64,000 nucleotides of DNA from Escherichia coli (GCF_050920415.1 NZ_CP169309.1); one strand, 5' to 3'; counted from the first letter of the stretch, positions 551 through 57,084 are shown. The notes: a model not told the origin generated them from the sequence alone. Made by a program: numbers and translations.

Positions 551-2315
<1,765 letters not shown>

Positions 2316-2661
2316 AGTAAATAGCTGACTTATGGATGTGCTGGGGATTCTATGTATTTAGCGGTGGCTTTACCATTACTTTTCCCGTTTTTGACTTAAA
2401 TAGCTTCAGTTTGGTCTGATCTGCCGCTACATCTTCATTTTTTTTGTATTTTTATGCGATTCATTGAAACTCAGCCCCATTTTCAACTCTACATAAGCCA
2501 TACCGACCTTATCGGTATGATATTTTTTATCTATTTGAATTTTATAATTAAAAAATATTTTGTGTATAAAAATCATTCGGGTCGGATTGCTGCGAAAGAA
2601 ATGATACACTAGCACGTCAAAGTAAGTGCGTTATCAGTATTCAGGTAGCTGTTGAGCCTGG

Positions 2662-2673
2662 GGCGGTAGCGTG
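2662..2673 (+). promoter_or_regulatory. ops element (GGCGGTAGCGTG) within a JUMPstart-like leader of the waaQ operon; RfaH recruitment site
   Basis: Exact match to ops consensus GGCGGTAGnnTG, about 85 bp upstream of waaQ start, in the waaA-waaQ divergent intergenic region. Confidence 0.8.
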
Positions 2674-2756
2674 CTTTTTTTCTGCTTAACTAACCAGACA
2701 ATCACACAAAAGAGTCGCTAGTGGAAAAGCCATTTCGAAAAATCCTGGTCATAAAG

Positions 2757-3791
2757 ATGCGATATCATGGAGATATGTTATTAACTACTCCTGTCATCAG
2801 TACGCTCAAGCAGAATTATCCTGATGCAAAAATCGATATGCTGCTTTATCAGGACACCATCCCTATTTTGTCTGAAAACCCGGAAATTAATGCGCTCTAC
2901 GGGATAAGCAATAAAGGTGCGGGAACATTCGATAAAATTAAAAATGTGCTTTCGTTGATAAAAACTCTGCGCGGAAATAATTATGACCTGGTCATTAATC
3001 TTACGGATCAGTGGATGGTGGCGCTGCTGGTACGTTGTTTACCTGCACGGATGAAAATATCGCAACTTTATGGTCATCGGCAGCATGGCATTTGGAAAAA
3101 AAGCTTCACTCACTTAGCGCCAATACACGGTACACATATTGTTGAGCGGAATTTATCGGTCCTTGAGCCATTAGGTATTACCGATTTCTACACTGACACA
3201 ACAATGAGTTACGCCGAAGATTGCTGGAAGAAGATGCGCCAGGAATTAGATGCCCTGGGCGTAAAAGATCATTATGTTGTCATCCAACCGACAGCGCGTC
3301 AGATATTTAAGTGTTGGGATAACGATAAATTTTCTAAGGTTATTGATGCGCTGCAACAGCGAGGATATCAGGTTGTGCTGACCTGTGGGCCTTCGGCAGA
3401 CGATCTCTCTTGTGTAGATGAGATTGCGCAAGGTTGCAAAACGAAACCCATTACTGGCCTTGCAGGTAAAACACGTTTTCCTGAACTGGGTGCGTTAATT
3501 GATCATGCAGTGCTTTTTATTGGCGTAGATTCTGCGCCGGGACATATTGCAGCGGCAGTGAAAACGCCAGTCATTAGTCTATTTGGTGCAACGGACCACG
3601 TATTCTGGCGCCCCTGGACCGAGAATATTATTCAATTCTGGGCGGGGAATTATCAGAAAATGCCGACCCGGCATGAACTTGACCGCAACAAAAAATATCT
3701 TTCTGTTATCCCAGCGGAAGATGTGATCGCCGCTACGGAAAAGCTGTTGCCAGAAGATGCCCCTTCAGCTGACAGGAATGCACAATTATGA
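2757..3791 (+). CDS. waaQ: LPS core heptosyltransferase III (344 aa from ATG at 2757; a GTG at 2721 would give 356 aa)
   Basis: Translation MRYHGDMLLTTPVISTLKQNYPDAKIDMLL...; heptosyltransferase family 9 fold; first gene of waaQ operon. Confidence 0.85.
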   Translation: MRYHGDMLLTTPVISTLKQNYPDAKIDMLLYQDTIPILSENPEINALYGISNKGAGTFDKIKNVLSLIKTLRGNNYDLVINLTDQWMVALLVRCLPARMKISQLYGHRQHGIWKKSFTHLAPIHGTHIVERNLSVLEPLGITDFYTDTTMSYAEDCWKKMRQELDALGVKDHYVVIQPTARQIFKCWDNDKFSKVIDALQQRGYQVVLTCGPSADDLSCVDEIAQGCKTKPITGLAGKTRFPELGALIDHAVLFIGVDSAPGHIAAAVKTPVISLFGATDHVFWRPWTENIIQFWAGNYQKMPTRHELDRNKKYLSVIPAEDVIAATEKLLPEDAPSADRNAQL

Positions 3792-4912
3792 TCGTGGCGT
3801 TTTGTTTATATAAATATTTTCCATTTGGTGGGCTTCAACGTGACTTTATGCGTATTGCATCAACAGTTGCCGCTCGGGGCCACCATGTTCGGGTCTATAC
3901 GCAGTCGTGGGAAGGTGATTGCCCAAAAGCATTTGAGCTTATTCAGGTGCCAGTTAAGTCCCATACCAACCATGGACGCAATGCAGAGTATTATGCCTGG
4001 GTACAAAATCATCTCAAAGAGCATCCCGCAGATCGCGTTGTTGGGTTTAATAAGATGCCAGGTCTGGATGTTTATTTTGCTGCTGATGTTTGTTACGCCG
4101 AGAAAGTTGCGCAAGAAAAAGGTTTTTTATATCGTTTAACATCACGATATCGCCATTATGCCGCATTTGAGCGGGCGACTTTCGAGCAGGGTAAATCGAC
4201 GAAACTTATGATGCTGACCGATAAGCAAATCGCCGATTTCCAGAAGCATTATCAAACCGAACCTGAACGTTTTCAAATTCTTCCTCCCGGTATTTATCCG
4301 GACAGAAAATACAGCGAGCAAATCCCAAACAGTCGTGAAATTTATCGCCAGAAAAATGGCATAAAAGAGCAACAAAACTTATTACTGCAGGTTGGATCAG
4401 ATTTTGGCCGTAAAGGTGTGGATCGCTCAATTGAAGCTTTGGCATCGTTATCGGAATCATTACGTCACAATACGCTTTTATTTGTTGTTGGCCAGGATAA
4501 GCCGCGAAAATTTGAAGCGCTGGCAGAAAAGCTCGGCGTGCGGAGCAATGTGCATTTCTTCTCCGGTCGCAATGATGTGTCAGAATTAATGGCAGCCGCT
4601 GATTTATTACTGCATCCCGCTTATCAGGAAGCCGCGGGTATCGTTCTTCTTGAAGCAATCACTGCTGGATTACCTGTTTTAACAACTGCGGTATGTGGGT
4701 ACGCGCATTATATTGCGGATGCCAATTGTGGAACGGTTATCGCTGAACCATTCTCCCAGGAACAGTTAAATGAAGTTTTACGTAAAGCGTTAACTCAGTC
4801 TCCATTACGAATGGCCTGGGCGGAGAATGCTCGCCATTATGCCGATACTCAGGATTTGTATAGCCTGCCAGAGAAAGCCGCAGATATCATTACAGGTGGT
4901 TTAGATGGTTGA
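3788..4912 (+). CDS. waaG: LPS core glucosyltransferase I, 374 aa
   Basis: 374-aa ORF overlapping waaQ stop (ATGA); GT4-like C-terminal region ...[26 protein letters not shown]... Confidence 0.9.
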
Positions 4913-5702
4913 ATTAAAAGAGCCGCTTGCCACACTTTGGCGTGGTAAAGATGCTTTTGAAGAAGTCAAAAAACTGAATGGCGAGGTCTTTCGTGAACTC
5001 GAGACGCGTCGCACATTACGCTTTGAACTGGCCGGGAAAAGCTATTTTCTTAAATGGCACAAAGGGACGACATTAAAAGAGATTGTAAAAAATCTACTCT
5101 CATTACGGATGCCCGTTTTGGGCGCAGACAGAGAGTGGCACGCTATTCATCGCCTGAGTGATGTTGGCGTTGATACAATGAAGGGCATTGGGTTTGGTGA
5201 AAAAGGGTTAAATCCATTAACTCGCACATCATTTATTATTACCGAAGATCTCACTCCCACGATTAGCCTTGAAGATTATTGTGCTGATTGGGCAGTCAAC
5301 CCGCCTGATATACGTGTAAAGCGTATGCTGATTACACGAGTGGCAACCATGGTGCGTAAAATGCACGCCGCAGGGATAAATCACCGCGACTGCTACATTT
5401 GCCACTTTTTGCTTCATTTACCATTTACTGGCCGGGAAGATGAATTAAAAATTTCGGTTATCGATCTGCATCGGGCACAGATACGTGCAAAAGTACCGCG
5501 CCGTTGGCGCGATAAAGACCTGATTGGTTTATATTTCTCATCAATGAATATTGGCCTGACGCAAAGAGACATATGGCGATTTATGAAGGTTTATTTTGGG
5601 ATGCCTTTGCGAAAAATATTGTCTCTTGAACAGAACTTATTGAACATGACAAGCGTTAAGGCCGAGCGTATTAAAGAGCGAACACAACGTAAAGGATTAT
5701 AA
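4905..5702 (+). CDS. waaP: LPS core heptose(I) kinase, 265 aa
   Basis: 265-aa ORF overlapping waaG by 8 bp; kinase-like motifs ...[17 protein letters not shown]... Confidence 0.9.
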
Positions 5703-5738
5703 AAATATTTATCAGTATGTACTGGAACTAACTTCATT

Positions 5739-6674
5739 ATGACTATTTATTTTATAAACTGGGTTGCAGATTATGAATTAAAAATGATCCAGTACCTGAA
5801 AAAAAAGTACAAGATAAAAAACATAACGACACCAAAAAAATACAACTGGATTAATAAGAAAATCTCAAAAATAGGGATGGATAATGCATGGCTGGGGCGA
5901 TTATTCATCAAACATTACCTAAATGATATTAAAAAAGATGACATAATTATCTTTAATGACAGTGTTATTAATAAAGGTATCAATAAACAAATATTAAAAA
6001 ACATTAACTGTCATAAAGTTTTGCTTCTAAGAAATACTGTTAGCGAAGATTTTATTTTTGATAACGCCAATTATTTCGATGTTATATATGATTTTGAACA
6101 TAGATTTATAGGGAATGAAAAGACCAAAGCAATAGAACAATTTTTTCCTATAGGGATGGAGGAGATTACGAATTATAACTTATCTGACAAAAATAACAGT
6201 CAGCCAATATGTTTCTTTCTTGGTCGAGATAAAGGGCGTCTTCAAATAATTAATGAGTTAGCCGATAGACTAGCAACACTAGGATGTAAGTTAGATTTTA
6301 ATGTTGTCAAAGATAAGACATCATCACCGACTTCAAAGTATTTGATTGAAAAACAAATGCCTTATGAAGAGAATATTAGAAGAACATTAAATGCTAATAT
6401 AATTGTTGATATAACTAAAGAAAACCAATCTGGTTGGACTCTTCGTATACTTGAGGCGCTATTTTTCAATAAGAAATTAATCACCAATAATATAAATATA
6501 CTTACTTCAGAAATCTATAGTGAGTCTCGCTTTTTTATAATAGGTCATGATGATTGGGATAAGTTAGAGTATTTTATTAACTCATCTGTTAAACCAATGG
6601 ATTATGATAGTTTATATAAATTCAGTCCAGATAAAATGATGTCAACGATTGTTTCTGATTTTATAGATAAATAA
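5739..6674 (+). CDS. waaS: LPS core biosynthesis protein WaaS (K-12 core-type specific), 311 aa
   Basis: AT-rich 311-aa ORF at the waaS position of the K-12-type core cluster. Confidence 0.75.
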
Positions 6675-6717
6675 AACCGTTAAAACAGTGAGTTTTACTC
6701 AATTAATGAGATCTTCT

Positions 6718-7797
6718 ATGAAAATAGCGTTTATCGGCGAAGCCGTTTCTGGATTTGGCGGCATGGAAACAGTCATCCGTGATGTCATTAGCAACTTCAG
6801 GCAACAACATATCCAAAGTGAAATGTTTTTCTTTTGTCGTAATGACAAAATGGATAAGGGATGGCTAGAGGGTATACAGTACTCGTGTTCATTTTCCAAT
6901 ATTCGTTTAGGCTTTTTACGTCGGGCGAAACATATTTATGCTTTAAGCAAATGGCTGCGGGATTATCAACCGGATATCGTTATTTGTATTGATGTGATCT
7001 CCTGCCTGTTTGCCGCAAAAGCACGTAAAAAATCAGGAATTGATGTGCCAGTATTTTCATGGCCACATTTTTCTTTAGATCACAAAAAACATGCTGAATA
7101 TATCACCTGTGCCGACTATCATTTAGCAATCAGCTCTGGCATTAAACAGCAAATGATTAATCGGGGTGTAGCAGAATCGACGATAAATGTTATTTTTAAT
7201 CCCGTCGAAGCCAAAGATTCAGTCATTCCCGCGCCCGAGGAAGCCGAAACGGCAACGTTCATTTATGTTGGGCGTATGAAATTTGAAGGCCAGAAGAGAG
7301 TTAAAGACCTGCTTGATGGCTTATCACAAGCGCAAGGTAACTGGAAACTCCATGTATTGGGTGATGGTTCCGATTTTGAAAAATGCCAGGCTTATAGTAG
7401 AGAACTAAATATTGATGATCGAATTGTCTGGTATGGTTGGCAACAACATCCCTGGGAATTGGTCCAGCAAGATATTAAAAAAGTGAGTGCATTATTGCTC
7501 ACGTCATCTTTTGAAGGTTTCCCAATGACCCTACTTGAAGCCTTGTCATGGGGGATTCCTTGTATCAGTGCCGATTGTGTCTCCGGGCCTGCTGACATTA
7601 TTCAACCTGATGTCAATGGTCATCTGTATCAACCGGGAGATATTGCTGGTTTTGTAACTCTTCTAAATAAATATATAGCAGGTGAAATTCATATCGAACA
7701 TGAAAAAATTCCTGCGTCGATCGATAAGTTTTACCAATCGAAGTATTACGATAGATTACATAAGATAATTATTTCTGCTATTTCCCGGAGGAAATAA
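6718..7797 (+). CDS. waaB: LPS core UDP-galactose:(glucosyl)LPS alpha-1,6-galactosyltransferase, 359 aa from internal Met
   Basis: Translation MKIAFIGEAVSGFGGMETVIRD...; GT4 family E-x7-E region ...SSFEGFPMTLLEALSWGIPCIS... Confidence 0.85.
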   Translation: MKIAFIGEAVSGFGGMETVIRDVISNFRQQHIQSEMFFFCRNDKMDKGWLEGIQYSCSFSNIRLGFLRRAKHIYALSKWLRDYQPDIVICIDVISCLFAAKARKKSGIDVPVFSWPHFSLDHKKHAEYITCADYHLAISSGIKQQMINRGVAESTINVIFNPVEAKDSVIPAPEEAETATFIYVGRMKFEGQKRVKDLLDGLSQAQGNWKLHVLGDGSDFEKCQAYSRELNIDDRIVWYGWQQHPWELVQQDIKKVSALLLTSSFEGFPMTLLEALSWGIPCISADCVSGPADIIQPDVNGHLYQPGDIAGFVTLLNKYIAGEIHIEHEKIPASIDKFYQSKYYDRLHKIIISAISRRK

Positions 7798-8816
7798 TGC
7801 AGCAGGTGTTTTTCCAGGAAACTGAGTTTCTTAATTCAGTTATTGATTATAATCATAAAGTAGAAACAGAAAATCTTTGTCTGGACATCGCTTATGGAAC
7901 TGACAAAAATTTTCTATTTGGTTGCGGAATTTCGATTGCTTCAATATTAAAGTATAATGAAGGAAGTCGATTGTGTTTCCATATTTTTACTGATTATTTT
8001 GGTGATGATGATCGTAAGTATTTTGATGCCCTGGCGTTGCAGTATGAAACCAGAATTAAAATATATCTGATTAATGGTGATCGACTGCGCTCATTGCCTA
8101 GCACAAAGAATTGGACTCATGCAATATATTTTCGTTTTGTTATTGCAGATTACTTTATTAATAAGGCGTCTAAAGTCCTTTATCTGGATGCAGATATCAT
8201 TTGTCAGGGGAATATTGAGCCACTAATTAATTTCTCATTTCCTGGCGATAAAGTCGCAATGGTTGTTACAGAAGGGCAAGCTGACTGGTGGGAAAAACGC
8301 GCCCATTCGTTAGGTGTTGTGGGAATTGCTAAAGGTTACTTTAACTCGGGTTTTTTATTGATTAATACTGCCCAATGGGCGGCTCAGCAGGTTTCTGCCC
8401 GAGCCATTGCAATGCTAAATGAGCCAGAAATAATCAAAAAGATAACACATCCTGATCAGGATGTATTAAATATGTTGCTGGCAGATAAACTTATTTTTGC
8501 TGATATTAAATATAACACCCAGTTTAGCTTAAATTATCAACTTAAAGAAAGCTTTATAAACCCAGTAACCAACGATACTATTTTTATCCATTATATCGGA
8601 CCAACCAAGCCCTGGCATGATTGGGCCTGGGATTATCCTGTATCACAAGCCTTTATGGAGGCAAAAAATGCTTCGCCATGGAAGAATACGGCGTTGCTGA
8701 AACCGAACAATAGCAATCAATTAAGATATAGCGCAAAACATATGCTTAAAAAGCATAGATATCTAAAAGGATTTAGCAACTATCTTTTTTATTTTATTGA
8801 AAAGATAAAGCATTAA
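7797..8816 (+). CDS. waaO: LPS core alpha-1,3-glucosyltransferase (GT8 family), 339 aa
   Basis: 339-aa ORF; GT8-type motifs ...LYLDADIICQG..., ...HYIGPTKPW... Confidence 0.85.
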   Translation: MQQVFFQETEFLNSVIDYNHKVETENLCLDIAYGTDKNFLFGCGISIASILKYNEGSRLCFHIFTDYFGDDDRKYFDALALQYETRIKIYLINGDRLRSLPSTKNWTHAIYFRFVIADYFINKASKVLYLDADIICQGNIEPLINFSFPGDKVAMVVTEGQADWWEKRAHSLGVVGIAKGYFNSGFLLINTAQWAAQQVSARAIAMLNEPEIIKKITHPDQDVLNMLLADKLIFADIKYNTQFSLNYQLKESFINPVTNDTIFIHYIGPTKPWHDWAWDYPVSQAFMEAKNASPWKNTALLKPNNSNQLRYSAKHMLKKHRYLKGFSNYLFYFIEKIKH

Positions 8817-8855
8817 AACTGGGAAACTATAAAGTAATGATATAAGGGTAGCATT

Positions 8856-9872
8856 GTGGACTCATTTCCTGCCATAGAGATAGATAAAGTTAAAGCCTGG
8901 GATTTTCGGCTTGCTAATATAAATACTTCTGAATGTTTAAATGTTGCCTATGGTGTCGATGCTAATTATCTTGATGGTGTAGGTATTTCCATCACATCAA
9001 TTGTCCTAAATAATCGACATATTAATCTTGATTTTTATATTATTGCTGATGTTTATAATGATGGTTTTTTTCAAAAAGTTGCAAAGCTTGCAGAGCAATA
9101 CCAATTAAGAATCACGTTATATAGAATTAACACTGATAAGCTCCAGTGCTTGCCTTGTACACAGGTCTGGTCAAGAGCAATGTACTTCCGTTTATTTGCA
9201 TTTCAATTATTGGGTTTAACGCTTGATCGTTTGCTTTATCTTGATGCAGATGTTGTTTGTAAAGGCGATATTAGCCAACTATTGCATCTGGATTTAAACG
9301 GAGCGGTTGCTGCTGTTGTTAAAGATGTTGAGCCAATGCAGGAAAAGGCGGTATCCAGGTTGTCTGATCCTGAATTACTTGGGCAGTACTTTAATTCTGG
9401 TGTCGTTTATTTAGATTTAAAAAAATGGGCTGACGCAAAACTAACAGAAAAAGCGTTGTCTATTCTTATGAGTAAAGATAATGTTTATAAATACCCTGAT
9501 CAGGATGTTATGAATGTCTTACTGAAAGGGATGACAATATTTTTGCCTCGTGAGTACAATACAATTTATACAATTAAAAGTGAATTAAAAGATAAAACAC
9601 ATCAAAACTATAAAAAGCTGATTACAGAAAGTACTCTTCTTATTCATTATACAGGTGCAACTAAACCGTGGCACAAATGGGCAATTTATCCATCGGTAAA
9701 ATACTATAAAATAGCTTTAGAAAATTCGCCATGGAAAGATGACTCGCCACGAGATGCAAAATCAATTATTGAATTTAAAAAAAGATATAAACATCTTTTA
9801 GTGCAGCGTCACTATATCTCAGGAATTATAGCAGGAGTCTGTTATCTTTGCCGAAAATATTACCGTAAATAA
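8856..9872 (+). CDS. waaJ: LPS core alpha-1,2-glucosyltransferase (GT8 family), 338 aa
   Basis: 338-aa paralog of the preceding GT8 ORF (...LYLDADVVCKG..., ...HYTGATKPW...). Confidence 0.85.
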   Translation: MDSFPAIEIDKVKAWDFRLANINTSECLNVAYGVDANYLDGVGISITSIVLNNRHINLDFYIIADVYNDGFFQKVAKLAEQYQLRITLYRINTDKLQCLPCTQVWSRAMYFRLFAFQLLGLTLDRLLYLDADVVCKGDISQLLHLDLNGAVAAVVKDVEPMQEKAVSRLSDPELLGQYFNSGVVYLDLKKWADAKLTEKALSILMSKDNVYKYPDQDVMNVLLKGMTIFLPREYNTIYTIKSELKDKTHQNYKKLITESTLLIHYTGATKPWHKWAIYPSVKYYKIALENSPWKDDSPRDAKSIIEFKKRYKHLLVQRHYISGIIAGVCYLCRKYYRK

Positions 9873-9889
9873 CATTTAACTGGTTTATT

Positions 9890-10588
9890 ATGATTCAGAA
9901 GAGCAAGATCAAAGACTTGGTTGTTTTTACCGATGAAAACAATTCAAAGTATCTCAATGTATTAAATGACTTTCTTTCTTATGATATTAATATCATCAAA
10001 GTTTTTCGTTCTATAGATGATACAAAAGTCATGCTTATTGATACCGATTACGGTAAATTGATACTTAAAGTTTTTTCTCCTAAAGTTAAACGCAACGAAC
10101 GTTTCTTTAAATCTCTTTTAAAGGGAGATTATTATGAACGCCTTTTTGAGCAAACTCAAAAAGTGCGTAACGAGGGGCTACATTCTCTCAATGACTTCTA
10201 TTTGTTAGCAGAACGGAAAACATTACGTTTTGTCCATACTTACATCATGCTTATCGAATATATCGATGGCGTTGAGTTGTGTGATATCCCCGATATTGAT
10301 GAAACGTTAAAAAATAAAATTCAACAATCAATCCGTTCATTGCACGAACATGGTATGGTATCTGGTGATCCTCACCGTGGTAATTTTATTATTGAAAATG
10401 GTGAAGTACGCATTATTGATCTTTCAGGAAAACGGGCATCTTCACAACGTAAAGCGAAAGATCGTATTGATCTAGAACGACATTATGGTATTAAGAATGA
10501 GATTAAAGATCTCGGTTATTATCTTTTAGTTTATCGTAAAAAAATACGTAATCTTATGCGCCGCTTGAAAGGAAAGCCAGCACGATAA
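9890..10588 (+). CDS. waaY: LPS core heptose(II) kinase, 232 aa
   Basis: 232-aa ORF with kinase-like ...HEHGMVSGDPHRGNFII...; position after waaJ. Confidence 0.85.
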   Translation: MIQKSKIKDLVVFTDENNSKYLNVLNDFLSYDINIIKVFRSIDDTKVMLIDTDYGKLILKVFSPKVKRNERFFKSLLKGDYYERLFEQTQKVRNEGLHSLNDFYLLAERKTLRFVHTYIMLIEYIDGVELCDIPDIDETLKNKIQQSIRSLHEHGMVSGDPHRGNFIIENGEVRIIDLSGKRASSQRKAKDRIDLERHYGIKNEIKDLGYYLLVYRKKIRNLMRRLKGKPAR

Positions 10589-10659
10589 AGTAAAAGTCTT
10601 ACATTTAAACGTCTTCGTCAGAACATTTCTATGCGGAGTTATTATTTCACAGGTTTATC

Positions 10660-11511
10660 ATGAAGAATATTAGATACATTGACAAAAAAGATGTTGAAAA
10701 CCTGATAGAAAGTAAAACGTCTGATGATGTTATTATTTTTCTTTCCGGCCCCACATCGCAAAAAACACCATTGTCAGTTCTGCAGACAAGGGATGTTATT
10801 GCTGTCAATGGTTCCGCGCAATATCTACTAAGTCATAATATTATTCCCTATATTTATGTACTTACTGATGTTCGCTTCTTGCATCAGCGTCGTGATGATT
10901 TTTATAAATTTAGCCAGAGAAGTCGTTATACCATAGTAAACGTCGACGTTTATGAACACGCTTCCAAAGAAGATAAACTTTATATCCTCCAAAACTGCCT
11001 CGTATTACGGTCCTTTTACCGCCGAGAAAAAGGCGGTTTGATAAAGAAGATAAAATTTAATATATTAAGTCAGATTCATAAAGAACTGCTGATCTCTGTA
11101 CCGTTGTCTAAAAAAGGTCGTCTGGTCGGATTTAGCAAGGACATCAGTCTTGGTTATTGCTCATGCCATACTATTGCCTTTGCTGCAATTCAAATAGCAT
11201 ATACACTTAAGTATGCGCGGATTATTTGTTCTGGTCTTGATTTAACTGGTAGTTGTTCTCGTTTCTATGACGAAAGTAACAATCCTATGCCCTCGGAATT
11301 GAGTAGGGATTTGTATAAAATCTTGCCATTTTTCCGTTTTATGCGTGATAATGTAGAAGATATTAATATTTATAATTTGTCAGATGATACGGCTATTTCT
11401 TACGATGTAATTCCATTTATTAAACCTCTCGATATCAGTACAGAAGAGTCAAAGGATAAGATAAGAAAAAAAATGGAATATAAAGCTTCAACTGATTCTT
11501 ATGCTAATTAA
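10660..11511 (+). CDS. waaZ: LPS core biosynthesis protein WaaZ (K-12 core type), 283 aa
   Basis: 283-aa AT-rich ORF at waaZ position. Confidence 0.75.
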   Translation: MKNIRYIDKKDVENLIESKTSDDVIIFLSGPTSQKTPLSVLQTRDVIAVNGSAQYLLSHNIIPYIYVLTDVRFLHQRRDDFYKFSQRSRYTIVNVDVYEHASKEDKLYILQNCLVLRSFYRREKGGLIKKIKFNILSQIHKELLISVPLSKKGRLVGFSKDISLGYCSCHTIAFAAIQIAYTLKYARIICSGLDLTGSCSRFYDESNNPMPSELSRDLYKILPFFRFMRDNVEDINIYNLSDDTAISYDVIPFIKPLDISTEESKDKIRKKMEYKASTDSYAN

Positions 11512-11543
11512 TCATCCTGAAACTAAAATTATATGGTATAAAA

Positions 11544-12617
11544 ATGCGTTTAGGAACTTTTCACAAAAAGAAAAGATTTTATATAAACAAAATCAAGATT
11601 AATTTTCTTTCTTTTTTATTTCGTAAAAAAATCAATAACCAAGTTACAGATCTCGCACAAGTTAAATCATGCCTTATCATTCATGATAATAATAAACTCG
11701 GTGATTTAATTGTATTAAGTTCGATTTATCGTGAGCTTTATAGTAAAGGAGTTAAAATAACCATTCTCACAAATAGAAAGGGAGGGGAGTTTCTCTCTAA
11801 CAATAAAAATATATTTGGATTCTGTATTAAAGAATCAACAGGTTTCCTTAAAATGCTTACTCTATGTAAGCATTTGCGGGATTTACAGTTCGATATTGTA
11901 TTAGACCCCTTTGAAACTATGCCCTCATTTAAGCATAGCTTAATATTATCAAGTTTAAAAGATTCTTACATTCTGGGTTTTGATCAATGGTATAAGCGTT
12001 ACTATTCATTTTACCATCCCCATGATGAATGTTTAAAAGAACATATGAGTACACGAGCAATAGAAATACTGAAGCATATTTATGGTGAGGGTGAATTTTC
12101 CACCGACTACGACTTGCATTTGCCTGTAGATGTTGAAAATAAAATAATAGATTTTATTGGGAATACAAGGATAGTCATCATTAACCCATTAGGTGCAAAA
12201 AAAATATGCCGACTTACGTTTGAGCAAATAAAAGTTATATATCAAGAAGTGAAAGTACAATTTGAGAATTATCGAGTGATATTTACTGGGTTGCCGCAAG
12301 ATTTATTGACAATACCAATACCTGAAATCGAAACACTACCATTTGATGAGTTTATTTATACCGTTGCGTTGACCAGGTATAGTGATTTTGTCATTTCTGT
12401 TGATACAGCTCTTGTTCATATCGCTGCGGCTTATCATAAACCAACGCTTGCATTTTATCCTAATTCACGCACTCCGGAATATCCCTCACATTTAATTTGG
12501 TCCCCAAATAATCATCGGTCTATACAAATAGTATCCCCAACATTTACGGTAAAAGATATCGATCCTGAAACTTTAACTGATTCAGTAAAGAGATTAAGTT
12601 GTATAGATAAGAAGTGA
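11544..12617 (+). CDS. waaU: LPS core heptosyltransferase-family protein WaaU (RfaK), 357 aa
   Basis: 357-aa ORF, last gene of the long waaQ operon, heptosyltransferase-like fold. Confidence 0.8.
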   Translation: MRLGTFHKKKRFYINKIKINFLSFLFRKKINNQVTDLAQVKSCLIIHDNNKLGDLIVLSSIYRELYSKGVKITILTNRKGGEFLSNNKNIFGFCIKESTGFLKMLTLCKHLRDLQFDIVLDPFETMPSFKHSLILSSLKDSYILGFDQWYKRYYSFYHPHDECLKEHMSTRAIEILKHIYGEGEFSTDYDLHLPVDVENKIIDFIGNTRIVIINPLGAKKICRLTFEQIKVIYQEVKVQFENYRVIFTGLPQDLLTIPIPEIETLPFDEFIYTVALTRYSDFVISVDTALVHIAAAYHKPTLAFYPNSRTPEYPSHLIWSPNNHRSIQIVSPTFTVKDIDPETLTDSVKRLSCIDKK

Positions 12618-12642
12618 GTTTTAACTCACTTCTTAAACTTGT

Positions 12643-13908
12643 CTATTCTTGATTAATAGTATTGTTGCGATTATTAATAACGAGTAAGAGGACTATAGCT
12701 GATATAACGATAATTGGAATGCTGCGTGCCCATATGATTACATCACTGAGTCCAATCCCCACTATGCCAAGCGTTAATATCAACAAACCCAATGCGCGTT
12801 TTTTATATGCTGTATAAAATAGTGAATAATAGAGGAAAAGGGTAGAAAAAATCCCCATCAGACCTTTTAGTGACGCTGCTTCAATTATCTCATTATGTAG
12901 GTGTACGTTAGAAAACTCCAATGCCCCTCTTAGCCTGTTGTGTTCTGCAACTAACAAATTCATACTTTCAGCGCGCGACTCTGCAGATCTAAATGAAAAA
13001 GGTGACTTTTTGAATATATCCAAACCAATTTCGTACATTGCCAGCCTTGCACCTAAGGAAGTCACGCTATTAGCATTGGTATAACTGTTTAAATCATTTA
13101 ATGCTTCATTATAGCGATTCTGTATTGGTTTATTAAATATAATTACAATACTCGCCAATATAGCAATTAGAAGAACAATAGCGGAAGTAAATTTCTTAGG
13201 TGATTTATTATAATAAGCTATTAATGTAACAGCACAAATTCCAGGAAACAGGAGTAGTGTTGCTCTGGTTTGTGTTAGTGCCAGAACATAAAGTACCGCG
13301 CAACTATTTAATAAAAATAAAAAAGGATGGTTCTTCTTAGTATAAAGAATCGCAACACCACTAACTATCCCTATTAGCATTGTTGAATATGCCGCTCCTG
13401 TTGCCGTTCCTACACCAAAAGAAATACGGTCATATTCATGAATGCTATTAATATACATTGCATATCCAGCAATTATAAATGACAGAGAATATAAAATGTA
13501 TAATACACTCTCTTTTTTATTTTTTAGCTGACTAGTTAGTGCTAAAAAAACAATAAAAGAACCAAATATAAATATTTTGGCAGTATTTAAATAACTATGG
13601 TAAGTAGCACGAAATGGCGAGTTATCTACTTTAAATATAGAATACCAAATTAAATCAAGCAAGCCTATAAAAAATATAGAAAGGGGCAGAATAATATTTT
13701 TTATATTGTAATTTCCTTGTCTGCCACGTAAAATTAGTGATAATAGGCAAACTATAGCAGTGATATTATATATCTTTATGCTGAAAGTGTTATCGACGAA
13801 TGCAATTATCAATGAAAGAAAACATAATATATAAGTTATTACCTCTAAAATCATAGATGATTTCAGAGTGTAAGGTTTCCATGAATGAAGTTTAATGAAG
13901 GTTGGCAT
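12643..13908 (-). CDS. waaL: O-antigen ligase, polytopic membrane protein, 421 aa
   Basis: Highly hydrophobic 421-aa ORF; position and orientation as waaL in the hldD-waaFCL operon. Confidence 0.85.
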   Translation of the reverse strand: MPTFIKLHSWKPYTLKSSMILEVITYILCFLSLIIAFVDNTFSIKIYNITAIVCLLSLILRGRQGNYNIKNIILPLSIFFIGLLDLIWYSIFKVDNSPFRATYHSYLNTAKIFIFGSFIVFLALTSQLKNKKESVLYILYSLSFIIAGYAMYINSIHEYDRISFGVGTATGAAYSTMLIGIVSGVAILYTKKNHPFLFLLNSCAVLYVLALTQTRATLLLFPGICAVTLIAYYNKSPKKFTSAIVLLIAILASIVIIFNKPIQNRYNEALNDLNSYTNANSVTSLGARLAMYEIGLDIFKKSPFSFRSAESRAESMNLLVAEHNRLRGALEFSNVHLHNEIIEAASLKGLMGIFSTLFLYYSLFYTAYKKRALGLLILTLGIVGIGLSDVIIWARSIPIIVISAIVLLLVINNRNNTINQE

Positions 13909-13917
13909 GTTTTACCT

Positions 13918-14877
13918 TTATAATGATGATAGTTTTTCCAAAACTGCTTGACCGTTGAGATTAATTAAACTTTTTCCCGGTGCCATGCAAACTACCTGAT
14001 TCTTCCCATACCCACCAATTAATCCCGGATCGGTAGGTCCATAAACCGTGATATTGGGTCTATCCAGTGCCGCCGTTAAATGGCTTAACCCCGTATCCAC
14101 CGACACCACAAATTTAGCGCCCGCCAGCACACGAGCAACGCCTTCCAGACTCATCTTCGGCAATACTTCAACATAAGCAAATCCTTCCGCCAGTCGTTTC
14201 GCCCGTTCTTCCTCATGCGGCGCGCCCCACGGAAGTTTAATCCGTATTCCTGAATCAGCCAGTAAACCAATCAATTCTCGCCAGTGTTCTTCCGGCCAGT
14301 GTTTATCATCACGGGTCGTCGCATGAAGAAATACGGCATATTCGCCAGCATCTGTAGGCAGGTTCGTCAGGAAATGCTGTGCGATAGCATAATCGCCCTG
14401 GGTTTGCGGTTTGCTATAGCCCAGACTTTTGGCAAACAGTTCGCGGGTGCGTTCTACGGCGTGCTGCTGTTTTGCAATATGATGCTTACGATTGTAAAAC
14501 AGGCTGGCTAAGGGTTCGCGAGCGGTTTGCCAGTCCATTCCATGCTTTACGCCATGCGCCAGACGCGTCACCAGCGCCGCGCTTTTTACCAGCCCCTGAG
14601 CGTCGATAACTGCGTCATAGTTCTCTGCTTGTAGCGCTTCACGAAACGCTTTGCGTTCAGCTTTTATGGGGGCCGAGAACCAGGCTTTACGCCAGCGACG
14701 TATTGCCACAGGAATAACTCGCTCAACGGCAGCGTGCCAGGAAGGAATCTGTGCGAACCCTTCTTCCACCACCCAGTCAAACTTAATCCCTGGGATTGCC
14801 TGCTGGGCATCAGTGAGTGCGGGCAGCGTATGGAGAACATCGCCCATCGACGATGTTTTAACGATCAGAACCCGCAT
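13918..14877 (-). CDS. waaC: LPS heptosyltransferase I, 319 aa
   Basis: MRVLIVKTSSMGDVLHTLPALTDA...; 319 aa. Confidence 0.9.
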   Translation of the reverse strand: MRVLIVKTSSMGDVLHTLPALTDAQQAIPGIKFDWVVEEGFAQIPSWHAAVERVIPVAIRRWRKAWFSAPIKAERKAFREALQAENYDAVIDAQGLVKSAALVTRLAHGVKHGMDWQTAREPLASLFYNRKHHIAKQQHAVERTRELFAKSLGYSKPQTQGDYAIAQHFLTNLPTDAGEYAVFLHATTRDDKHWPEEHWRELIGLLADSGIRIKLPWGAPHEEERAKRLAEGFAYVEVLPKMSLEGVARVLAGAKFVVSVDTGLSHLTAALDRPNITVYGPTDPGLIGGYGKNQVVCMAPGKSLINLNGQAVLEKLSSL

Positions 14878-14880
14878 CCG

Positions 14881-15927
14881 TCAGGTTTCCTCTTGTAACA
14901 ATAGCGCGTTGAGTTCTTCCAGTACGCGCTGGGGAGTAATGTCGATCAAGCTCTGGTGATAACCCTCCGCAGCGTCACCTTTACGCACTTTGTGATAGCC
15001 GGTAATCAGGCGGATCACGCGCGCTTTATGGGATAGTGGCGGTGTGAAGTCCGGGCTACTCGGACCATACAGGGCAACCAAAGGACGATTGAGCGCCGCC
15101 GCAACGTGCATCAGGCCAGAATCGTTAGTGACAATGGCTTTACAGGCTGCAATCAGGATAACTGCTTGATCAAGCTGTGTTTCCCCCGCCAGGTTCCGGC
15201 ACCATGCCTGCTGCTCGGTATTCAAAGCGGCAAGAATCTCATTGCCCGCTTCATGATCTTTCGCCGAGCCAAACAGAACCACCTGATAACCTTCATCAAT
15301 CAGCTGCTTTGCCAGCTCCGCATAGTGGTAGTGTGGCCAGCGTTTTGCCGGACCAAACTCCGCTCCGGGGCAAAAGCCAATCATCGGACGTTCTGATGAA
15401 AGCGAAAATTGATTACAGGTATATGATTTTTCACCTTCGCTCACCTGCAACTGCGGCCATAACAATGGCTGCGGCAGATCTTGTGCGGTACGCATAATGC
15501 CTTTGTCATAGGCCAGCGCGACATAGCGTTCCACCATTAGCGGCCAGGCTTCTTTATCGAGCACGCGTACATCGTTAAGTAAACCGTAGCGCATCTCGCC
15601 GCGCCAGCCGGTGCGATGAGGAATACCCGCGAAGAAAGGCACTAATGCGGACTTGAAGGAGTTGGGTAAGACGTAGGCGCGGTCGTAGCGCTTTTCACGC
15701 AGACTATGACCCAGTTTGCGGCGTTCGCCGATTTCCAGCGCTCCGTGACCGAGAGGCATAGGGATAGCTTCGTTAACTTCCGGCATCCGCGATAATAACG
15801 GACGGCACCATGCCGGTGCCATCACGTCGATTATCGCCTGGGGATAGCGCGCCTGGAGCGTGCGATAGAGACTTTGCGACATCATCATGTCGCCAACCCA
15901 AGACGGGCCGATCACCAGTATTTTCAT
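14881..15927 (-). CDS. waaF: LPS heptosyltransferase II, 348 aa
   Basis: MKILVIGPSWVGDMMMSQSLYRTL...; 348 aa. Confidence 0.9.
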   Translation of the reverse strand: MKILVIGPSWVGDMMMSQSLYRTLQARYPQAIIDVMAPAWCRPLLSRMPEVNEAIPMPLGHGALEIGERRKLGHSLREKRYDRAYVLPNSFKSALVPFFAGIPHRTGWRGEMRYGLLNDVRVLDKEAWPLMVERYVALAYDKGIMRTAQDLPQPLLWPQLQVSEGEKSYTCNQFSLSSERPMIGFCPGAEFGPAKRWPHYHYAELAKQLIDEGYQVVLFGSAKDHEAGNEILAALNTEQQAWCRNLAGETQLDQAVILIAACKAIVTNDSGLMHVAAALNRPLVALYGPSSPDFTPPLSHKARVIRLITGYHKVRKGDAAEGYHQSLIDITPQRVLEELNALLLQEET

Positions 15928-15936
15928 GCAGAGCTC

Positions 15937-16869
15937 TTATGCGTCGCGATTCAGCCAGGCCATGTATTCCGTTACACCTTCAGCAACGGTTTTGAACGGT
16001 TTGTCGTAACCCGCCGCGCGCAGATTCGTCAGATCTGCCTGAGTGAACGCCTGATAGCGGCCTTTCAGTTTATCCGGGAACGGAATGTATTCGATCTGGC
16101 CTTTCTTGTGATAAGCAAGCGTAGCATCTGCTACTGCCTGGAAGGATTCTGCACGACCGGTGCCGAGGTTGAAGATGCCGGAAACGCCATTTTCCAGGAA
16201 CCACAGATTCACATCAGCCACGTCGCCCACATAGACGAAGTCACGTTTGAAGTTCTCGCTACCTTCGAACAGCTTCGGTGATTCACCGTTGTTAAGCTGA
16301 GTGTTGAGATGGAAAGCGACGCTCGCCATGCTGCCTTTATGGCCTTCACGCGGTCCATAAACGTTGAAATAGCGGAAGCCAACAATCTGCGAGTTCGCTT
16401 CTGGCAGGATTTGGCGAACATATTCATCAAACAGGAATTTTGAGTAACCGTAGACGTTCAACGGTTTTTCGTACTCGCGGGATTCAATAAAGTCGGAGGT
16501 GCGACCGCCGTAAGTGGCCGCGGAAGAGGCATACAGGAACGGGATTTCGCGTTCCAGACAGTAGTGCAGCAGCTCTTTGGAGTATTGATAGTTGTTATCC
16601 ATCATATACTTGCCATCCCACTCGGTGGTGGAAGAGCACGCGCCTTCGTGGAAAATCGCTTCGACATCGCCGAACTCTTCGCCAGCCATAATCTGGATCA
16701 GGAAGTCTTCCTTATCCATATAGTCCGCGATATCCAGATCGACCAGGTTCACAAACTTGGTGCCGTCTTTCAGGTTGTCCACCACCAGAATATCGGTGAT
16801 GCCTTTATCATTCAGGGCCTTAACGATATTGCTGCCGATAAAGCCCGCGCCGCCGGTAACGATGATCAT
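15937..16869 (-). CDS. hldD: ADP-L-glycero-D-manno-heptose 6-epimerase, 310 aa
   Basis: [23 protein letters not shown]... (NAD-binding GxxGxxG); 310 aa. Confidence 0.9.
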
Positions 16870-17082
16870 AACTGTAACCTTCGAATTATGGAGTCAGAGA
16901 CAATCTCAGACACGAATGCTTCTATCATATCACTACACGGCGTTCGCTTCAGCCATTCGCCAAAAGTGAGATTGATGGACGTTATTTATCCTGAATTTTG
17001 CAGAAGTGTTAACGCGTCATCTCGTCGCAACCTATAAGTTTGGGTAATATGTGCTGGAATTTGCCCTGTCTGGAGAATCGCA

Positions 17083-18292: not shown

Positions 18293-19318
18293 ATGAAAGC
18301 GTTATCCAAACTGAAAGCGGAAGAGGGCATCTGGATGACCGACGTTCCTGAACCGGAACTCGGACATAACGATCTGCTGATTAAAATCCGTAAAACAGCC
18401 ATCTGCGGGACTGACGTTCACATCTATAACTGGGATGAGTGGTCGCAAAAAACCATCCCAGTACCGATGGTTGTAGGCCATGAATATGTCGGTGAGGTGG
18501 TTGGCATCGGTCAGGAAGTGAAAGGCTTCAAGATCGGCGATCGCGTTTCTGGCGAAGGCCATATCACTTGTGGTCATTGCCGCAACTGTCGTGGCGGTCG
18601 TACACATCTGTGCCGCAACACGATCGGCGTCGGCGTTAACCGTCCGGGCTGCTTCGCCGAGTATCTGGTGATTCCGGCGTTCAACGCTTTCAAAATCCCC
18701 GACAATATCTCCGATGATCTGGCTTCCATTTTTGATCCCTTCGGTAACGCCGTGCATACCGCGCTGTCGTTTGATCTGGTGGGCGAGGATGTGCTGGTCT
18801 CTGGTGCAGGCCCGATAGGTATTATGGCTGCGGCGGTGGCGAAACACGTCGGTGCACGCAACGTGGTGATCACGGATGTTAATGAATACCGCCTTGAGCT
18901 GGCGCGTAAAATGGGTATCACCCGTGCGGTTAACGTCGCCAAAGAAAATCTCAATGACGTGATGGCGGAGTTAGGCATGACCGAAGGCTTTGATGTCGGT
19001 CTGGAAATGTCCGGTGCGCCGCCAGCGTTTCGTACCATGCTCGACACCATGAACCACGGCGGTCGCATTGCGATGCTGGGTATTCCGCCGTCTGATATGT
19101 CTATCGACTGGACCAAAGTGATCTTTAAAGGCTTGTTCATTAAAGGTATTTACGGTCGTGAGATGTTTGAAACCTGGTACAAGATGGCGGCGCTGATTCA
19201 GTCTGGCCTCGATCTCTCGCCGATCATTACCCATCGTTTCTCTATCGATGATTTCCAGAAGGGCTTTGACGCTATGCGTTCGGGCCAGTCCGGGAAAGTT
19301 ATTCTGAGCTGGGATTAA
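18293..19318 (+). CDS. tdh: L-threonine 3-dehydrogenase, 341 aa
   Basis: Zn-dependent ADH-like (...[12 protein letters not shown]..., ...[10 protein letters not shown]...); 341 aa. Confidence 0.9.
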
Positions 19319-19328
19319 CACGAACAAG

Positions 19329-19353
19329 GGCTGGTATTCCAGCCCTTTTTCCT
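19329..19353 (+). terminator. Rho-independent terminator after tdh (gggctgg-tattc-cagccc followed by T-run)
   Basis: GC stem plus ttttt tract read directly, 10 bp after tdh stop. Confidence 0.7.
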
Positions 19354-19555
19354 GAGGATAATCCGTTAAATATGTAAAATCCTGTCAGTGTAATAAAGAT
19401 ATCGTAATTGCGCTGATCTCTTATATAGCTGCTCTCATTATCTCTCTACCCTGAAGTGACTCTCTCACCTGTAAAAATAATATCTCACAGGCTTAATGGT
19501 TTCTTAATACAAAGCCTGTAAAACATCAGGATAACTTCAGAGGTCGTCGGTATTT

Positions 19556-20590
19556 ATGATGAACAGCACCAATAAACTCAGTGTTATTATCCCGTTATAT
19601 AATGCGGGAGATGATTTCCGTACTTGCATGGAATCTTTAATCGCGCAAACCTGGACTGCTCTGGAAATCATTATTATTAACGATGGTTCAACGGATAATT
19701 CTGTTGAAATAGCAAAGCATTACGCGGAAAACTATCCGCACGTTCGTTTGCTGCATCAGGCGAATGCCGGCGCATCGGTGGCGCGTAATCGTGGGATCGA
19801 GGCGGCGACGGGTAAATATGTCGCTTTTGTCGATGCTGACGATGAGGTCTATCCCACTATGTACGAAACGCTGATGACCATGGCGTTAGAGGACGACCTC
19901 GACGTGGCGCAGTGCAACGCTGACTGGTGTTTTCGTGAAACGGGAGAAACCTGGCAATCCATCCCCAGCGATCGCCTTCGCTCAACCGGCGTATTAACCG
20001 GCCCTGATTGGTTGCGGATGGGGCTTTCTTCCCGCCGTTGGACTCATGTTGTCTGGATGGGCATTTATCGTCGTGATGTCATTGTTAAAAATAACATTAA
20101 ATTTATTGCCGGATTACATCATCAGGATATTGTCTGGACAACAGAATTTATGTTTAACGCGCAACGCGTGCGATATACCGAGCAATCGTTATATAAATAT
20201 TATTTGCATAATACGGCAGTGAGCCGATTGAATAGACAGGGAAATAAAAACCTTAATTATCAACGCCACTATATTAAGATTACCCGACTGTTGGAAAAGT
20301 TAAATCGCGATTACGCAGACAGAATAGTGATTTACCCGGAATTTCATCAACAAATAACTTACGAAGCATTACGTGTTTGCCATGCGGTACGTAAAGAGCC
20401 AGATATTATTACCCGCCAACGGATGATTGCTGAGATATTTACTTCCGGTATGTATAAGCGCCTGATTTCCAATGTACGCAGCATAAAGGTGGGTTATCAG
20501 GCGTTACTGTGGTCTTTCCGCTTATGGCAATGGCGCGACAAAACACGGTCGCACCATCGCATTACGCGTAGCGCCTTTAATTTGCGCTAG
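19556..20590 (+). CDS. waaH: GT2-family glycosyltransferase WaaH (YibD), 344 aa
   Basis: ...[14 protein letters not shown]...[11 protein letters not shown]...VDADDE... (GT2 DxD), 344 aa. Confidence 0.85.
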
Positions 20591-44616: not shown

Positions 44617-45195
44617 ATGGATCTGTTGATTGTTTTAACTTACGTGGCGCTGGCATGGGCGGTCTTTAAAATCTTCCGTATTCCGGTGAATCAGTGGACG
44701 CTGGCGACGGCGGCGCTGGGAGGCGTTTTTCTGGTAAGCGGTTTGATTTTGTTGATGAACTACAACCACCCTTACACTTTTACCGCACAGAAAGCGGTGA
44801 TTGCTATTCCCATCACGCCACAGGTGACGGGGATCGTGACTGAAGTCACTGACAAGAATAATCAGCTTATTCAGAAGGGCGAGGTGCTTTTTAAGCTCGA
44901 CCCGGTACGTTATCAGGCGCGAGTCGACAGACTTCAGGCTGACCTGATGACGGCGACGCATAATATAAAGACGCTGCGCGCGCAGCTCACTGAAGCGCAA
45001 GCCAATACCACCCAGGTTTCAGCGGAGCGTGACCGCTTGTTTAAAAATTATCAACGTTACCTGAAAGGCAGCCAGGCGGCGGTAAATCCGTTCTCAGAAC
45101 GTGATATCGACGATGCGCGGCAGAATTTTCTCGCGCAGGATGCGCTGGTGAAAGGTTCGGTGGCGGAACAGGCGCAAATCCAGAGCCAGCTCGAC
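44617..45195 (+). pseudogene. yibH: yibH 5' fragment (HlyD-family membrane fusion protein), 193 codons, interrupted by IS insertion
   Basis: [23 protein letters not shown]... reading frame runs into IS left end at 45196; the rest of the gene resumes at 47324. Confidence 0.85.
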
Positions 45196-45296
45196 TGTCA
45201 GCGCCAATGATATAAGACAGTAATTCACCATTTGGATTGTCCGCTCCACCCAACATGTTGTTTCCTTAAGGTTCCTACACCACAAAGGGAACACTC

Positions 45297-46343: not shown

Positions 46344-46455
46344 CATCGCACCGTCTCTGTTCGGCTGTATACGGCTGGCAGACCGTGCCGGAGCATCACG
46401 CCCCACTCTGGCAGCAGGTCAGTCAGGTGGAACACAGGCCGTTGAGTGCCTATGA

Positions 46456-47262
<807 letters not shown>

Positions 47263-47323
47263 TGACCAATAGCGGACATTAAAAATGGCGAAAAACGGCC
47301 AATAATCTTGGCGTTGACACGAC

Positions 47324-51284: not shown

Positions 51285-51289
51285 ATCAA

Positions 51290-57075: not shown

Positions 57076-57084
57076 ATAAAAGCA

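Follow-up and report, generated by a model that had tools for sequence, protein, structure and literature searches.

An AT-rich K-12-type waa cassette in Escherichia coli: recombinational exchange across the locus, and low GC content as a weak sign of foreign origin

We analysed a 64,000-nucleotide stretch of Escherichia coli chromosomal DNA (GCF_050920415.1, NZ_CP169309.1; the window), and its positions 5739-12617, as judged from their gene content, are the core-type-specific centre of a K-12-type waa (rfa) cluster, the gene cluster of the lipopolysaccharide (LPS) core. The explanation that we consider very likely as a whole is that this is a K-12-type cassette in an RfaH-dependent operon, that the cassette is exchanged by recombination, and that its AT-richness is ancient. 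A first-pass annotation of the same DNA had taken the low guanine-plus-cytosine (GC) content of waaS through waaU as consistent with horizontal origin. Exchange was directly supported by identity profiles across the locus, but low GC did not stand as a sign of the origin of the K-12 type.

The interval consists of exactly seven consecutive plus-strand open reading frames (ORFs), waaS through waaU, and all ORFs of the waa block are intact. The gene order is mutM, coaD, waaA (-), waaQGPSBOJ(R)YZU (+), convergent waaL-waaC-waaF-hldD (-), kbl, tdh and waaH. The run from waaQ through waaU occupies 2721-12617 (+), waaL-waaC-waaF-hldD occupies 12643-16869 (-), and an AT-rich intergenic region of 405 bp separates waaA and waaQ. 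Gene names were taken from the annotation of the near-identical record NZ_CP169399.1 (strain MFDS1022581; 3 single-nucleotide polymorphisms across the first 24.6 kb). There the seven genes bear the names rfaS, waaB, waaO, rfaJ, rfaY, waaZ and waaU. Together with the Pfam and NCBIfam matches, this annotation bears out the names given earlier and the assignment to the K-12 core type. The features of the locus are listed below.

1038-2315, minus strand: waaA, 3-deoxy-D-manno-octulosonic acid (Kdo) transferase (annotation); conserved left flank, GC 53.4%
2635-2673, plus strand: JUMPstart with the ops octamer GGCGGTAG at 2662-2669 (Rfam RF01707); leader of the waaQ operon
2721-3791, plus strand: waaQ, operon start, GC 0.444
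3788-4912, plus strand: waaG, operon start, GC 0.448
4905-5702, plus strand: waaP, operon start, GC 0.432
5739-6674, plus strand: waaS, putative rhamnosyltransferase (NCBIfam NF053598, WaaS/CpsH family, 185 bits); GC 27.9%, the window minimum
6718-7797, plus strand: waaB, glycosyltransferase family 4 (GT4) LPS 1,6-galactosyltransferase (NCBIfam NF007396, 608 bits; Pfam Glycos_transf_1); GC 40.2%
7797-8816, plus strand: waaO (waaI), GT8 outer-core hexosyltransferase (Pfam Glyco_transf_8 and 8C; NCBIfam NF011718, 579 bits); GC 35.7%
8856-9872, plus strand: waaJ (waaR), GT8 outer-core 1,2-glucosyltransferase (Pfam Glyco_transf_8 and 8C; annotation); GC 33.9%
9890-10588, plus strand: waaY, core heptose(II) kinase (Pfam WaaY, 430 bits); GC 33.5%
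10660-11511, plus strand: waaZ, KdoIII transferase (NCBIfam NF007333, 541 bits; TIGR04437, 467 bits); GC 34.6%
11544-12617, plus strand: waaU (rfaK of K-12), GT9 heptosyltransferase IV (Pfam Glyco_transf_9); K-12-type specific, GC 32.0%
12611-12634, no strand: hairpin with a 9-bp perfect stem, AGAAGTGAG-TTTTAA-CTCACTTCT, in the 25-bp gap between convergent waaU and waaL (sequence read directly)
12643-13908, minus strand: waaL, O-antigen ligase, K-12-type allele (Pfam Wzy_C); GC 32.4%
13918-16869, minus strand: waaC, waaF and hldD, conserved right flank, GC 51-54%
5703-13917, no strand: AT-rich trough, full extent (GC profile; 33.8% over 5500-13910)
2251-13950, no strand: exchanged unit, approximate (identity profiles)

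All the genes that define the K-12 core type (waaS, waaU and the K-12-type waaL, with waaB, waaO, waaJ(R), waaY and waaZ) were found in canonical order. In the core, WaaG, WaaO and WaaJ(R) build the glucose backbone and WaaB adds the galactose branch. WaaQ adds heptose III (HepIII), WaaP phosphorylates HepI and WaaY HepII, WaaZ adds KdoIII, and WaaS adds rhamnose in alternative glycoforms, acting on the inner core. WaaU adds HepIV, the K-12-specific fourth heptose, to which the O antigen is attached by the ligase WaaL. In the window, waaB, waaO and its paralogue waaJ/R would thus specify the hexose outer core, waaU the fourth heptose and waaL O-antigen ligation, while waaY (HepII kinase), waaZ (KdoIII) and waaS (rhamnose) would decorate the inner core. 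To call the block an outer-core glycosyltransferase set, as had been done, is therefore too simple.

WaaS gave no match to any Pfam family, and was assigned through the NCBIfam WaaS/CpsH family. One homologue carries the JGI name 1,5-rhamnosyltransferase, and another, more distant one lies amid rmlA/C/B/D-like genes on a metagenome contig (L011; ENA ERZ1310289, 4988-19264). On this contig the WaaS-like gene has 21% GC and the neighbouring rmlA/C/B/D-like, glycosyltransferase and waaL-like genes have 26-37%; these AT-rich genes lie between GT9 heptosyltransferase genes of 51% GC. The contig is a further case of an AT-rich trough among LPS-core genes, and it speaks for rhamnosyl transfer as the role of the WaaS family. 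The hairpin between waaU and waaL overlaps the waaU stop codon (12615-12617). It was not flagged by a simple terminator scan, and is a candidate bidirectional terminator.

At least 80% of the interval 5739-12617 was present in 1037 of 5426 complete E. coli genomes, K-12 and ST131 (sequence type 131) strains among them. The allele of the window is rare: a single one of the 5426 genomes showed at least 99% identity over the interval, and two exceeded 95% over the whole of it. A waaU fragment (95.5% identical) together with two hypothetical genes was also seen on NZ_CP051612.1, a 1907-bp record of an ST131 assembly and apparently the one plasmid match of the similarity search; this record is more likely a remnant of the assembly than a true plasmid.

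We compared the base composition of the block with that of the other genes. The GC content of 5739-12617 was 34.0% (27.9-40.2% for the seven genes), as against 0.534 for waaA, 0.515 for waaC, 0.543 for waaF and 0.510 for hldD, and a mean of 52.0% (standard deviation 3.5%) for the other intact genes of the window (n = 27). The difference was significant both against the other genes (Mann-Whitney p = 1.4e-5) and against waaQGP (p = 0.006). The latter genes, at 43-45% GC, were intermediate, lying ~7 points under the genome level and below background at p = 0.005. The lowest-GC stretch of 6879 bp in the 64 kb begins at 5801, and only 0.7% of such windows had a GC content of 0.340 or less. Sliding-window and codon-usage analysis showed that all three codon positions were depressed (pooled GC at codon positions 1/2/3, GC1/2/3, of 42.2/31.1/28.1 vs ~60/40/56 in neighbouring genes). 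Codon usage was shifted as well (Karlin B distance of 0.48-0.70 for the block genes, ~0.2-0.5 for ordinary genes), and the residues K, N, I, Y and F together made up 29-45% of the block proteins vs ~21% elsewhere. The contrast with waaA, waaC, waaF, hldD and waaQGP that the first-pass annotation had pointed out by eye was thus real, and the block differed significantly from its flanking genes.

The extent of the trough was another matter. The coordinates given earlier for the seven genes were exact, but the trough goes past 12617 through waaL (GC 0.324), so that its right-hand neighbour is not a conserved inner-core gene, as had been supposed, but a gene that is equally AT-rich and type-specific. 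The edges were sharp, one at the waaP 3' end (~5500-5740) and one at the waaL/waaC junction (~13900-13950), and the AT-rich tract comes to 8.2 kb at 33.8% GC, a multi-kilobase AT-rich segment of the kind expected of H-NS-silenced DNA. Further along, at 19251-20590, waaH (yibD), the gene for a glucuronate transferase that acts on HepIII, and the region upstream of it were also under genome GC: the gene had 45%, and the 500 bp upstream ~40%.

To see whether the trough belongs to the K-12 gene set, alternative core-type clusters were compared with the window. The references were picked by gene content: K-12 (L002), R2-like (L004), R1-like with the GT2 gene waaV (L005), R4-like with the GT25 gene waaX (L006), R3-like of O157:H7 (L007) and an ST131-like K-12-type cluster (L008). 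We observed that alternative cassettes occupy the same slot and that all are AT-rich: in every reference cluster the content between waaP and waaC had 26-40% GC, the flanks 50-54% and waaQGP 42-48%. As the trough occurs in every core type, it is a property of the slot and is not tied to the genes of the K-12 type.

Every gene of the cluster was collinear with K-12 at 86-98% identity, and the whole interval showed 94.5% nucleotide identity. The waaS, waaU and waaL genes had no nucleotide homologue in the R1-R4 reference clusters. The waaQGP genes of the window were 97% identical to K-12, ~90% to R2 and only 70-80% to a second class, which R1, R3, R4 and the ST131-like cluster share; the last of these combines an R1-class waaQGP with K-12-type waaS through waaL. 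The first-pass description of waaQGP as a conserved operon start was hence correct for gene content only, since these genes fall into two allele classes, 70-80% identical, that move with the variable block.

One gene departed from the K-12 pattern. The waaY of the window was 96.1% identical to the R2 allele, 86.4% to K-12 and ~86% to every other K-12-type cluster. In the sliding profile a patch at ~9900-10750 (waaY and the start of waaZ) showed 96-98% identity to the R2-type cluster and 81-89% to the K-12-type clusters of K-12, the ST131-like reference, Escherichia sp. E1V33 and E. whittamii. On these identities, this ~0.9-kb patch looks like gene conversion from an R2-type donor in an otherwise K-12-type cluster. 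Hybrids between the K-12 and R2 core types, and recombination, have already been described (PMC13293308).

The direct evidence for exchange came from two further species. K-12-type clusters were found in E. whittamii and in Escherichia sp. E1V33 (L013 and L015, respectively) by a profile search of genome contigs with a WaaS alignment. Against the window, E1V33 showed 91.4% identity in the left flank (1-2250), 97.1% in the centre (2251-9850) and 89.7% in the right flank (13950-15100; Fisher p = 8e-42), and E. whittamii 90.8%, 95.9% and 90.2% over the same segments (p = 8e-26). K-12 itself showed no contrast between flanks and centre (96.1%, 96.8% and 97.2%; p = 0.45). The identity of E1V33 jumps from 86-96% to 92-100% at ~2250 and falls back to 87-89% at ~14000; in between it is level with K-12, including a common dip to 81-90% over the waaY-waaZ patch (~10000-11000). 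The steps fall at the waaA 5' end (~2250-2315) and at the waaC 3' end (~13918-14000), and with identity changing at ~2250 and ~13950-14000, the unit that crosses species is ~11.7 kb. As delimited by these steps, it takes in the JUMPstart leader and waaQGP, and is hence wider than the AT-rich block. The distribution was likewise patchy, with genomes outside the 1037 carrying alternatives, and a centre that is closer than its flanks is phylogenetically incongruent. We also considered whether the window itself comes from a cryptic Escherichia species, and rejected this, as the identity of its flanks is 96-98% with K-12 but no more than 86-91% with E. whittamii and E1V33.

Past ~11250, the clusters of E. 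whittamii and of E. coli SCPM-O-B-8794 (L014) were without the K-12-type waaU and waaL. These two clusters may be K-12/R2-like hybrids.

No integrase, transposase, insertion sequence (IS) element or tRNA is annotated between waaA and hldD. A search for direct and inverted repeats over 2200-14300 gave only short AT-rich chance matches and the waaO/waaJ paralogy, and an Rfam scan of the whole window gave JUMPstart as the sole match, with no tRNA or other RNA at the locus. Without mobility genes or flanking repeats, the data are consistent with replacement by homologous recombination, as has likewise been argued, for loci lacking mobile-element features, in PMC8715443. The region behaves as a replaceable cassette: everything between the waaA-waaQ intergenic region and the boundary of waaL with waaC is swapped among Escherichia lineages, and even species, through homologous recombination in the conserved flanks, and smaller conversion patches, such as the R2-like waaY, pass between core types.

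The age of the cluster bears on whether it could be a comparatively recent import from a low-GC donor, betrayed by its GC content, as the first-pass annotation implied. A collinear waaQGPSBOJYZU-L-CF cluster was present in Citrobacter (L009, C. amalonaticus by protein cluster; L016 and L017, C. amalonaticus / sedlakii). The Citrobacter block proteins were 51-68% identical to those of the window, and WaaA, WaaC and WaaF 87-95%; the block had 40% GC (GC3 42%) between flanks of 51-57%, a shallower trough. At this protein identity, the K-12-type cluster predates or spans genus-level divergence. Homologues of the central region are said to be absent outside Escherichia and Shigella (PMC8715443), a remark that the Citrobacter clusters contradict.

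In several genera (Citrobacter, Pseudocitrobacter, Brenneria, Pectobacterium, Symbiopectobacterium, Dryocola and Rahnella) the WaaS-family genes lay 8-25 GC points under their outer flanks. The Pseudomonas homologues were only 0-5 points below theirs, with a host-like GC. In Firmicutes, Fusobacterium and Bacteroidota, which are mostly AT-rich, the WaaS relatives ranged from level with their flanks to ~10 points below, and these genes mostly had 21-33% GC. Low GC can thus not be upheld as a mark specific to the K-12 set, since it recurs in every core type and in genera such as Citrobacter, Pseudocitrobacter, Brenneria and Pectobacterium.

We then examined the direction of substitutions, using singletons polarised by majority rule among 4-6 K-12-type clusters. 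In waaS-waaJ there were 151 GC>AT vs 148 AT>GC changes, and in waaS-waaL 249 vs 232, with an implied equilibrium GC of 0.32-0.34 for both sets. In waaA the singletons were 39 GC>AT vs 12 AT>GC, implying an equilibrium of ~0.26. Third codon positions had a mild AT>GC excess (155 vs 121, p = 0.047) and a calculated equilibrium GC3 of ~0.33, vs ~0.55 in flanking genes, while first codon positions showed the opposite excess (60 vs 32). The net AT>GC flux that is expected of a recent low-GC import was not seen. As substitutions are balanced, the block is compositionally stationary and does not converge on the GC of the host. According to the Muto-Osawa and Lawrence-Ochman regressions, a genome of 33.8% GC would reportedly have GC1/2/3 of 48/36/25. 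The block resembles an AT-rich gene that reached equilibrium long ago, any amelioration at third positions being slight. A literature search on amelioration of polysaccharide clusters gave nothing directly usable.

Recent import is in keeping with the atypical GC at all codon positions, the atypical codon usage, the sharp boundaries, and the existence of WaaS relatives in low-GC Firmicutes and Fusobacterium at 21-33% GC. Nevertheless, a recent low-GC donor is largely refuted by the collinear Citrobacter cluster, by the trough common to all other core types, by the lack of net amelioration flux, and by the distance of the closest non-enterobacterial homologues (at most 43% identical); the locus also lacks integrase, IS and tRNA features as well as flanking repeats. 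We therefore regard this origin as very improbable, and the low GC only weakly indicates a foreign origin of the K-12 core type. Because all core types and other genera share the trough, and because substitutions are balanced, we consider it an old, stable property of the locus. Across Enterobacterales, the AT-richness of the variable part would be ancient and stably kept, and would most plausibly descend from an old AT-rich pool of polysaccharide genes; such an ancestral pool is a plausible source, as low-GC Firmicutes, Fusobacterium and Bacteroidota have relatives of WaaS.

The same substitution data bear on the possibility that low GC was made, or is kept, in place, the variable centre lying near the AT-biased mutational equilibrium of the host, where the forces that keep the remaining genome at ~51% GC (codon-usage selection in well-expressed genes, and GC-biased gene conversion in homologous recombination) would be weak and where alleles that have diverged too far for recombination would escape conversion. 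Balanced substitutions at 0.32-0.34 GC fit this, as does the waaA excess of 39 GC>AT over 12, which places the mutational equilibrium at ~0.26. GC also drops with allelic depth, from the flanks (51-54% GC, 95-98% identity) through waaQGP (43-48% GC, two classes 70-80% identical) to the centre (26-40% GC, no alignable homology between types), and WaaS-family genes lie 2-10 points under their surroundings even in AT-rich genomes. However, GC1, GC2 and the amino acids are shifted as in a native gene of a ~30-34% GC genome, which would need very long drift; the Pseudomonas homologues have no trough; other weakly expressed genes of the window (waaH, yibQ) stay at 45-52%; and the polarity test cannot tell new mutation from import of AT-rich alleles. 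We consider this explanation rather unlikely.

The operon leader gave a clear signal. JUMPstart (RF01707) reached 55.2 bits, where the gathering score of the family is 35 (E = 6e-10); it lies 48 nt upstream of the waaQ start on the coding strand, and contains an exact match to the ops octamer. The ops element is the recruitment site for the antiterminator RfaH. With waaS-waaU as the distal genes of the long waaQ operon, and JUMPstart/ops in the leader, RNA polymerase would presumably be loaded with RfaH, which would carry it across ~10 kb of AT-rich sequence, where H-NS tends to bind and Rho to terminate transcription. In strain CFT073 (R1-type), RfaH targeting and H-NS/StpA binding of the rfaQ/waaG operon have been reported, and RfaH is reportedly recruited exclusively to H-NS-StpA-bound loci (PMC9765446). 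RfaH dependence of distal expression is reported for other strains (PMC9765446; PMC5449661). By analogy, the waa operon of the window is presumably RfaH-dependent. A literature search for H-NS chromatin immunoprecipitation data on waaS/rfaS gave nothing usable. In the region, promoter-like sites (53 vs 45 ± 6.8 in shuffles) and terminator-like sites (16 vs 13 ± 3.7) were not enriched, and these consensus counts say nothing on internal regulation.

These observations raise the possibility that AT-richness is selected for regulation, that is, for H-NS/StpA and Rho control with RfaH-dependent expression, and for rare codons that keep membrane-active enzymes low. The strong JUMPstart/ops upstream and the reportedly exclusive recruitment of RfaH to H-NS-StpA-bound loci, rfaQ/waaG of CFT073 included (PMC9765446), would agree with it, as would the fact that the trough recurs in different genera and core types although the gene content has turned over completely. 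But the promoter- and terminator-like sites did not exceed the shuffles, and waaL, which lies in the hldD-waaFC-L operon and has no ops of its own, is equally AT-rich. Selection for regulation appears to us unlikely.

A broader proposal is that AT-richness is an actively maintained steady state at ~33% GC, through escape from gene conversion and codon selection or through RfaH/H-NS/Rho-based selection, and not the fossil of a donor. It draws on the balanced substitutions, the graded fall of GC with allelic depth and the recurrence across genera, and we put it forward as a tentative possibility that we are inclined to doubt. If it were true, the low GC of polysaccharide loci would result from balanced cassette polymorphism and could not be read as evidence of where the genes came from.

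Several points weigh against our preferred explanation, that of an exchanged K-12-type cassette with ancient AT-richness. The polarity test rests on 4-6 sequences, and some singletons are possibly recombinational imports of AT-rich alleles. The identity contrast between flanks and centre is compatible with inter-species transfer in either direction, and the RfaH and H-NS data come from other strains, such as the R1-type CFT073. The host-like GC of the Pseudomonas homologues implies that the WaaS family needs no intrinsic AT-richness. Lastly, no donor was found, the nearest non-enterobacterial WaaS relatives being only 26-43% identical.

Elsewhere in the window, the segment 32560-38263 carries the gene of a YadA-like trimeric autotransporter adhesin (4977 bp) and, after it, a DUF3251 gene (39% GC), the only one below 40% GC outside the waa block among the genes analysed. 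At 44617-47881 the IS21-like ISEc62 (istA, istB) splits an HlyD-family (yibH-like) gene. Compared with NZ_CP169399.1, istB has two compensating 1-bp homopolymer indels (46319 and 46552), and the gene is annotated as frameshifted in that record; these indels may be sequencing differences. The segment 50874-60324 carries two vgrG (tssI) genes of 58-60% GC, each followed by hypothetical genes at 33-48% GC (50874-53779 and 56146-57930). The vgrG-linked low-GC genes look like cargo islands of type VI effectors and immunity proteins. Nearby are fragments of ISAs1 and a gene of the muramidase family with 38.5% GC.

An AT-rich waa centre is an already known, ordinary pattern: Leclercq et al. 2021 (PMC8715443) described the low GC and inferred horizontal gene transfer, and did so for all five core types. 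What we add is small. It comprises the collinear K-12-type clusters outside Escherichia/Shigella, in Citrobacter, with WaaS relatives across Enterobacterales, and the observation that the unit exchanged between species takes in waaQGP and the leader, beyond the AT-rich centre. There is also a methodological lesson, that a deep GC trough neither dates nor locates the acquisition here; the direct evidence for horizontal movement is the identity profiles against other species and core types. Which O antigens a cell can attach, which phages can bind to it and how innate receptors see it all depend on its LPS core type. It is therefore useful for typing to know that the strain has a core of the K-12 type, encoded by a rare allele whose waaY is R2-like.

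In comparison with known systems, the locus is closest to the K-12 waa locus, with which it shares gene content and order, the per-gene GC profile and the JUMPstart leader. It differs in the 94.5% identity over the interval, in the waaY allele, and in yibB/htrL, which K-12 has and the window lacks. In the window hldD is directly followed by kbl (16870-17082), whereas K-12 has yibB (htrL, 37% GC) inserted there; the R1, R2, R4 and ST131-like reference loci are likewise without yibB between hldD and kbl. The R2 type shares waaB, waaO, waaJ, waaY and waaZ with the window at 86-96%, and the same waaQGP class (~90%), but has a GT8 gene in the waaS slot, waaK (an N-acetylglucosamine transferase) in place of waaU, and an unrelated waaL. 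The hybrids of PMC13293308 swap waaK/waaU and waaL, whereas the window has the full K-12 gene set and an R2-like allele of waaY only. R1, R3 and R4 share the slot between waaP and waaC, the AT-rich trough (30-38% GC) and the conserved flanks, but have different gene sets (waaT/W/V, waaX, waaD) and a waaQGP class that is 70-80% identical to that of the window; in R1 and R4 waaL is in + orientation, while in the window it is in -. Like classical genomic islands, the locus varies in content between strains, is phylogenetically incongruent, and has an atypical GC content and codon usage. Unlike them, the waa locus has no integrase, tRNA site, IS or direct repeats, and is exchanged via homologous flanks. 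The polysaccharide and other operons of the RfaH/ops class (O-antigen rfb, group 2 capsule kps, hly) are also long, AT-rich and strain-variable, with a JUMPstart/ops leader, and are reportedly H-NS-bound and counter-silenced by RfaH. The waa locus differs from these in that its cluster contains near-essential conserved genes, and in that its variable part consists of allelic cassettes at a fixed site, which are never simply present or absent.

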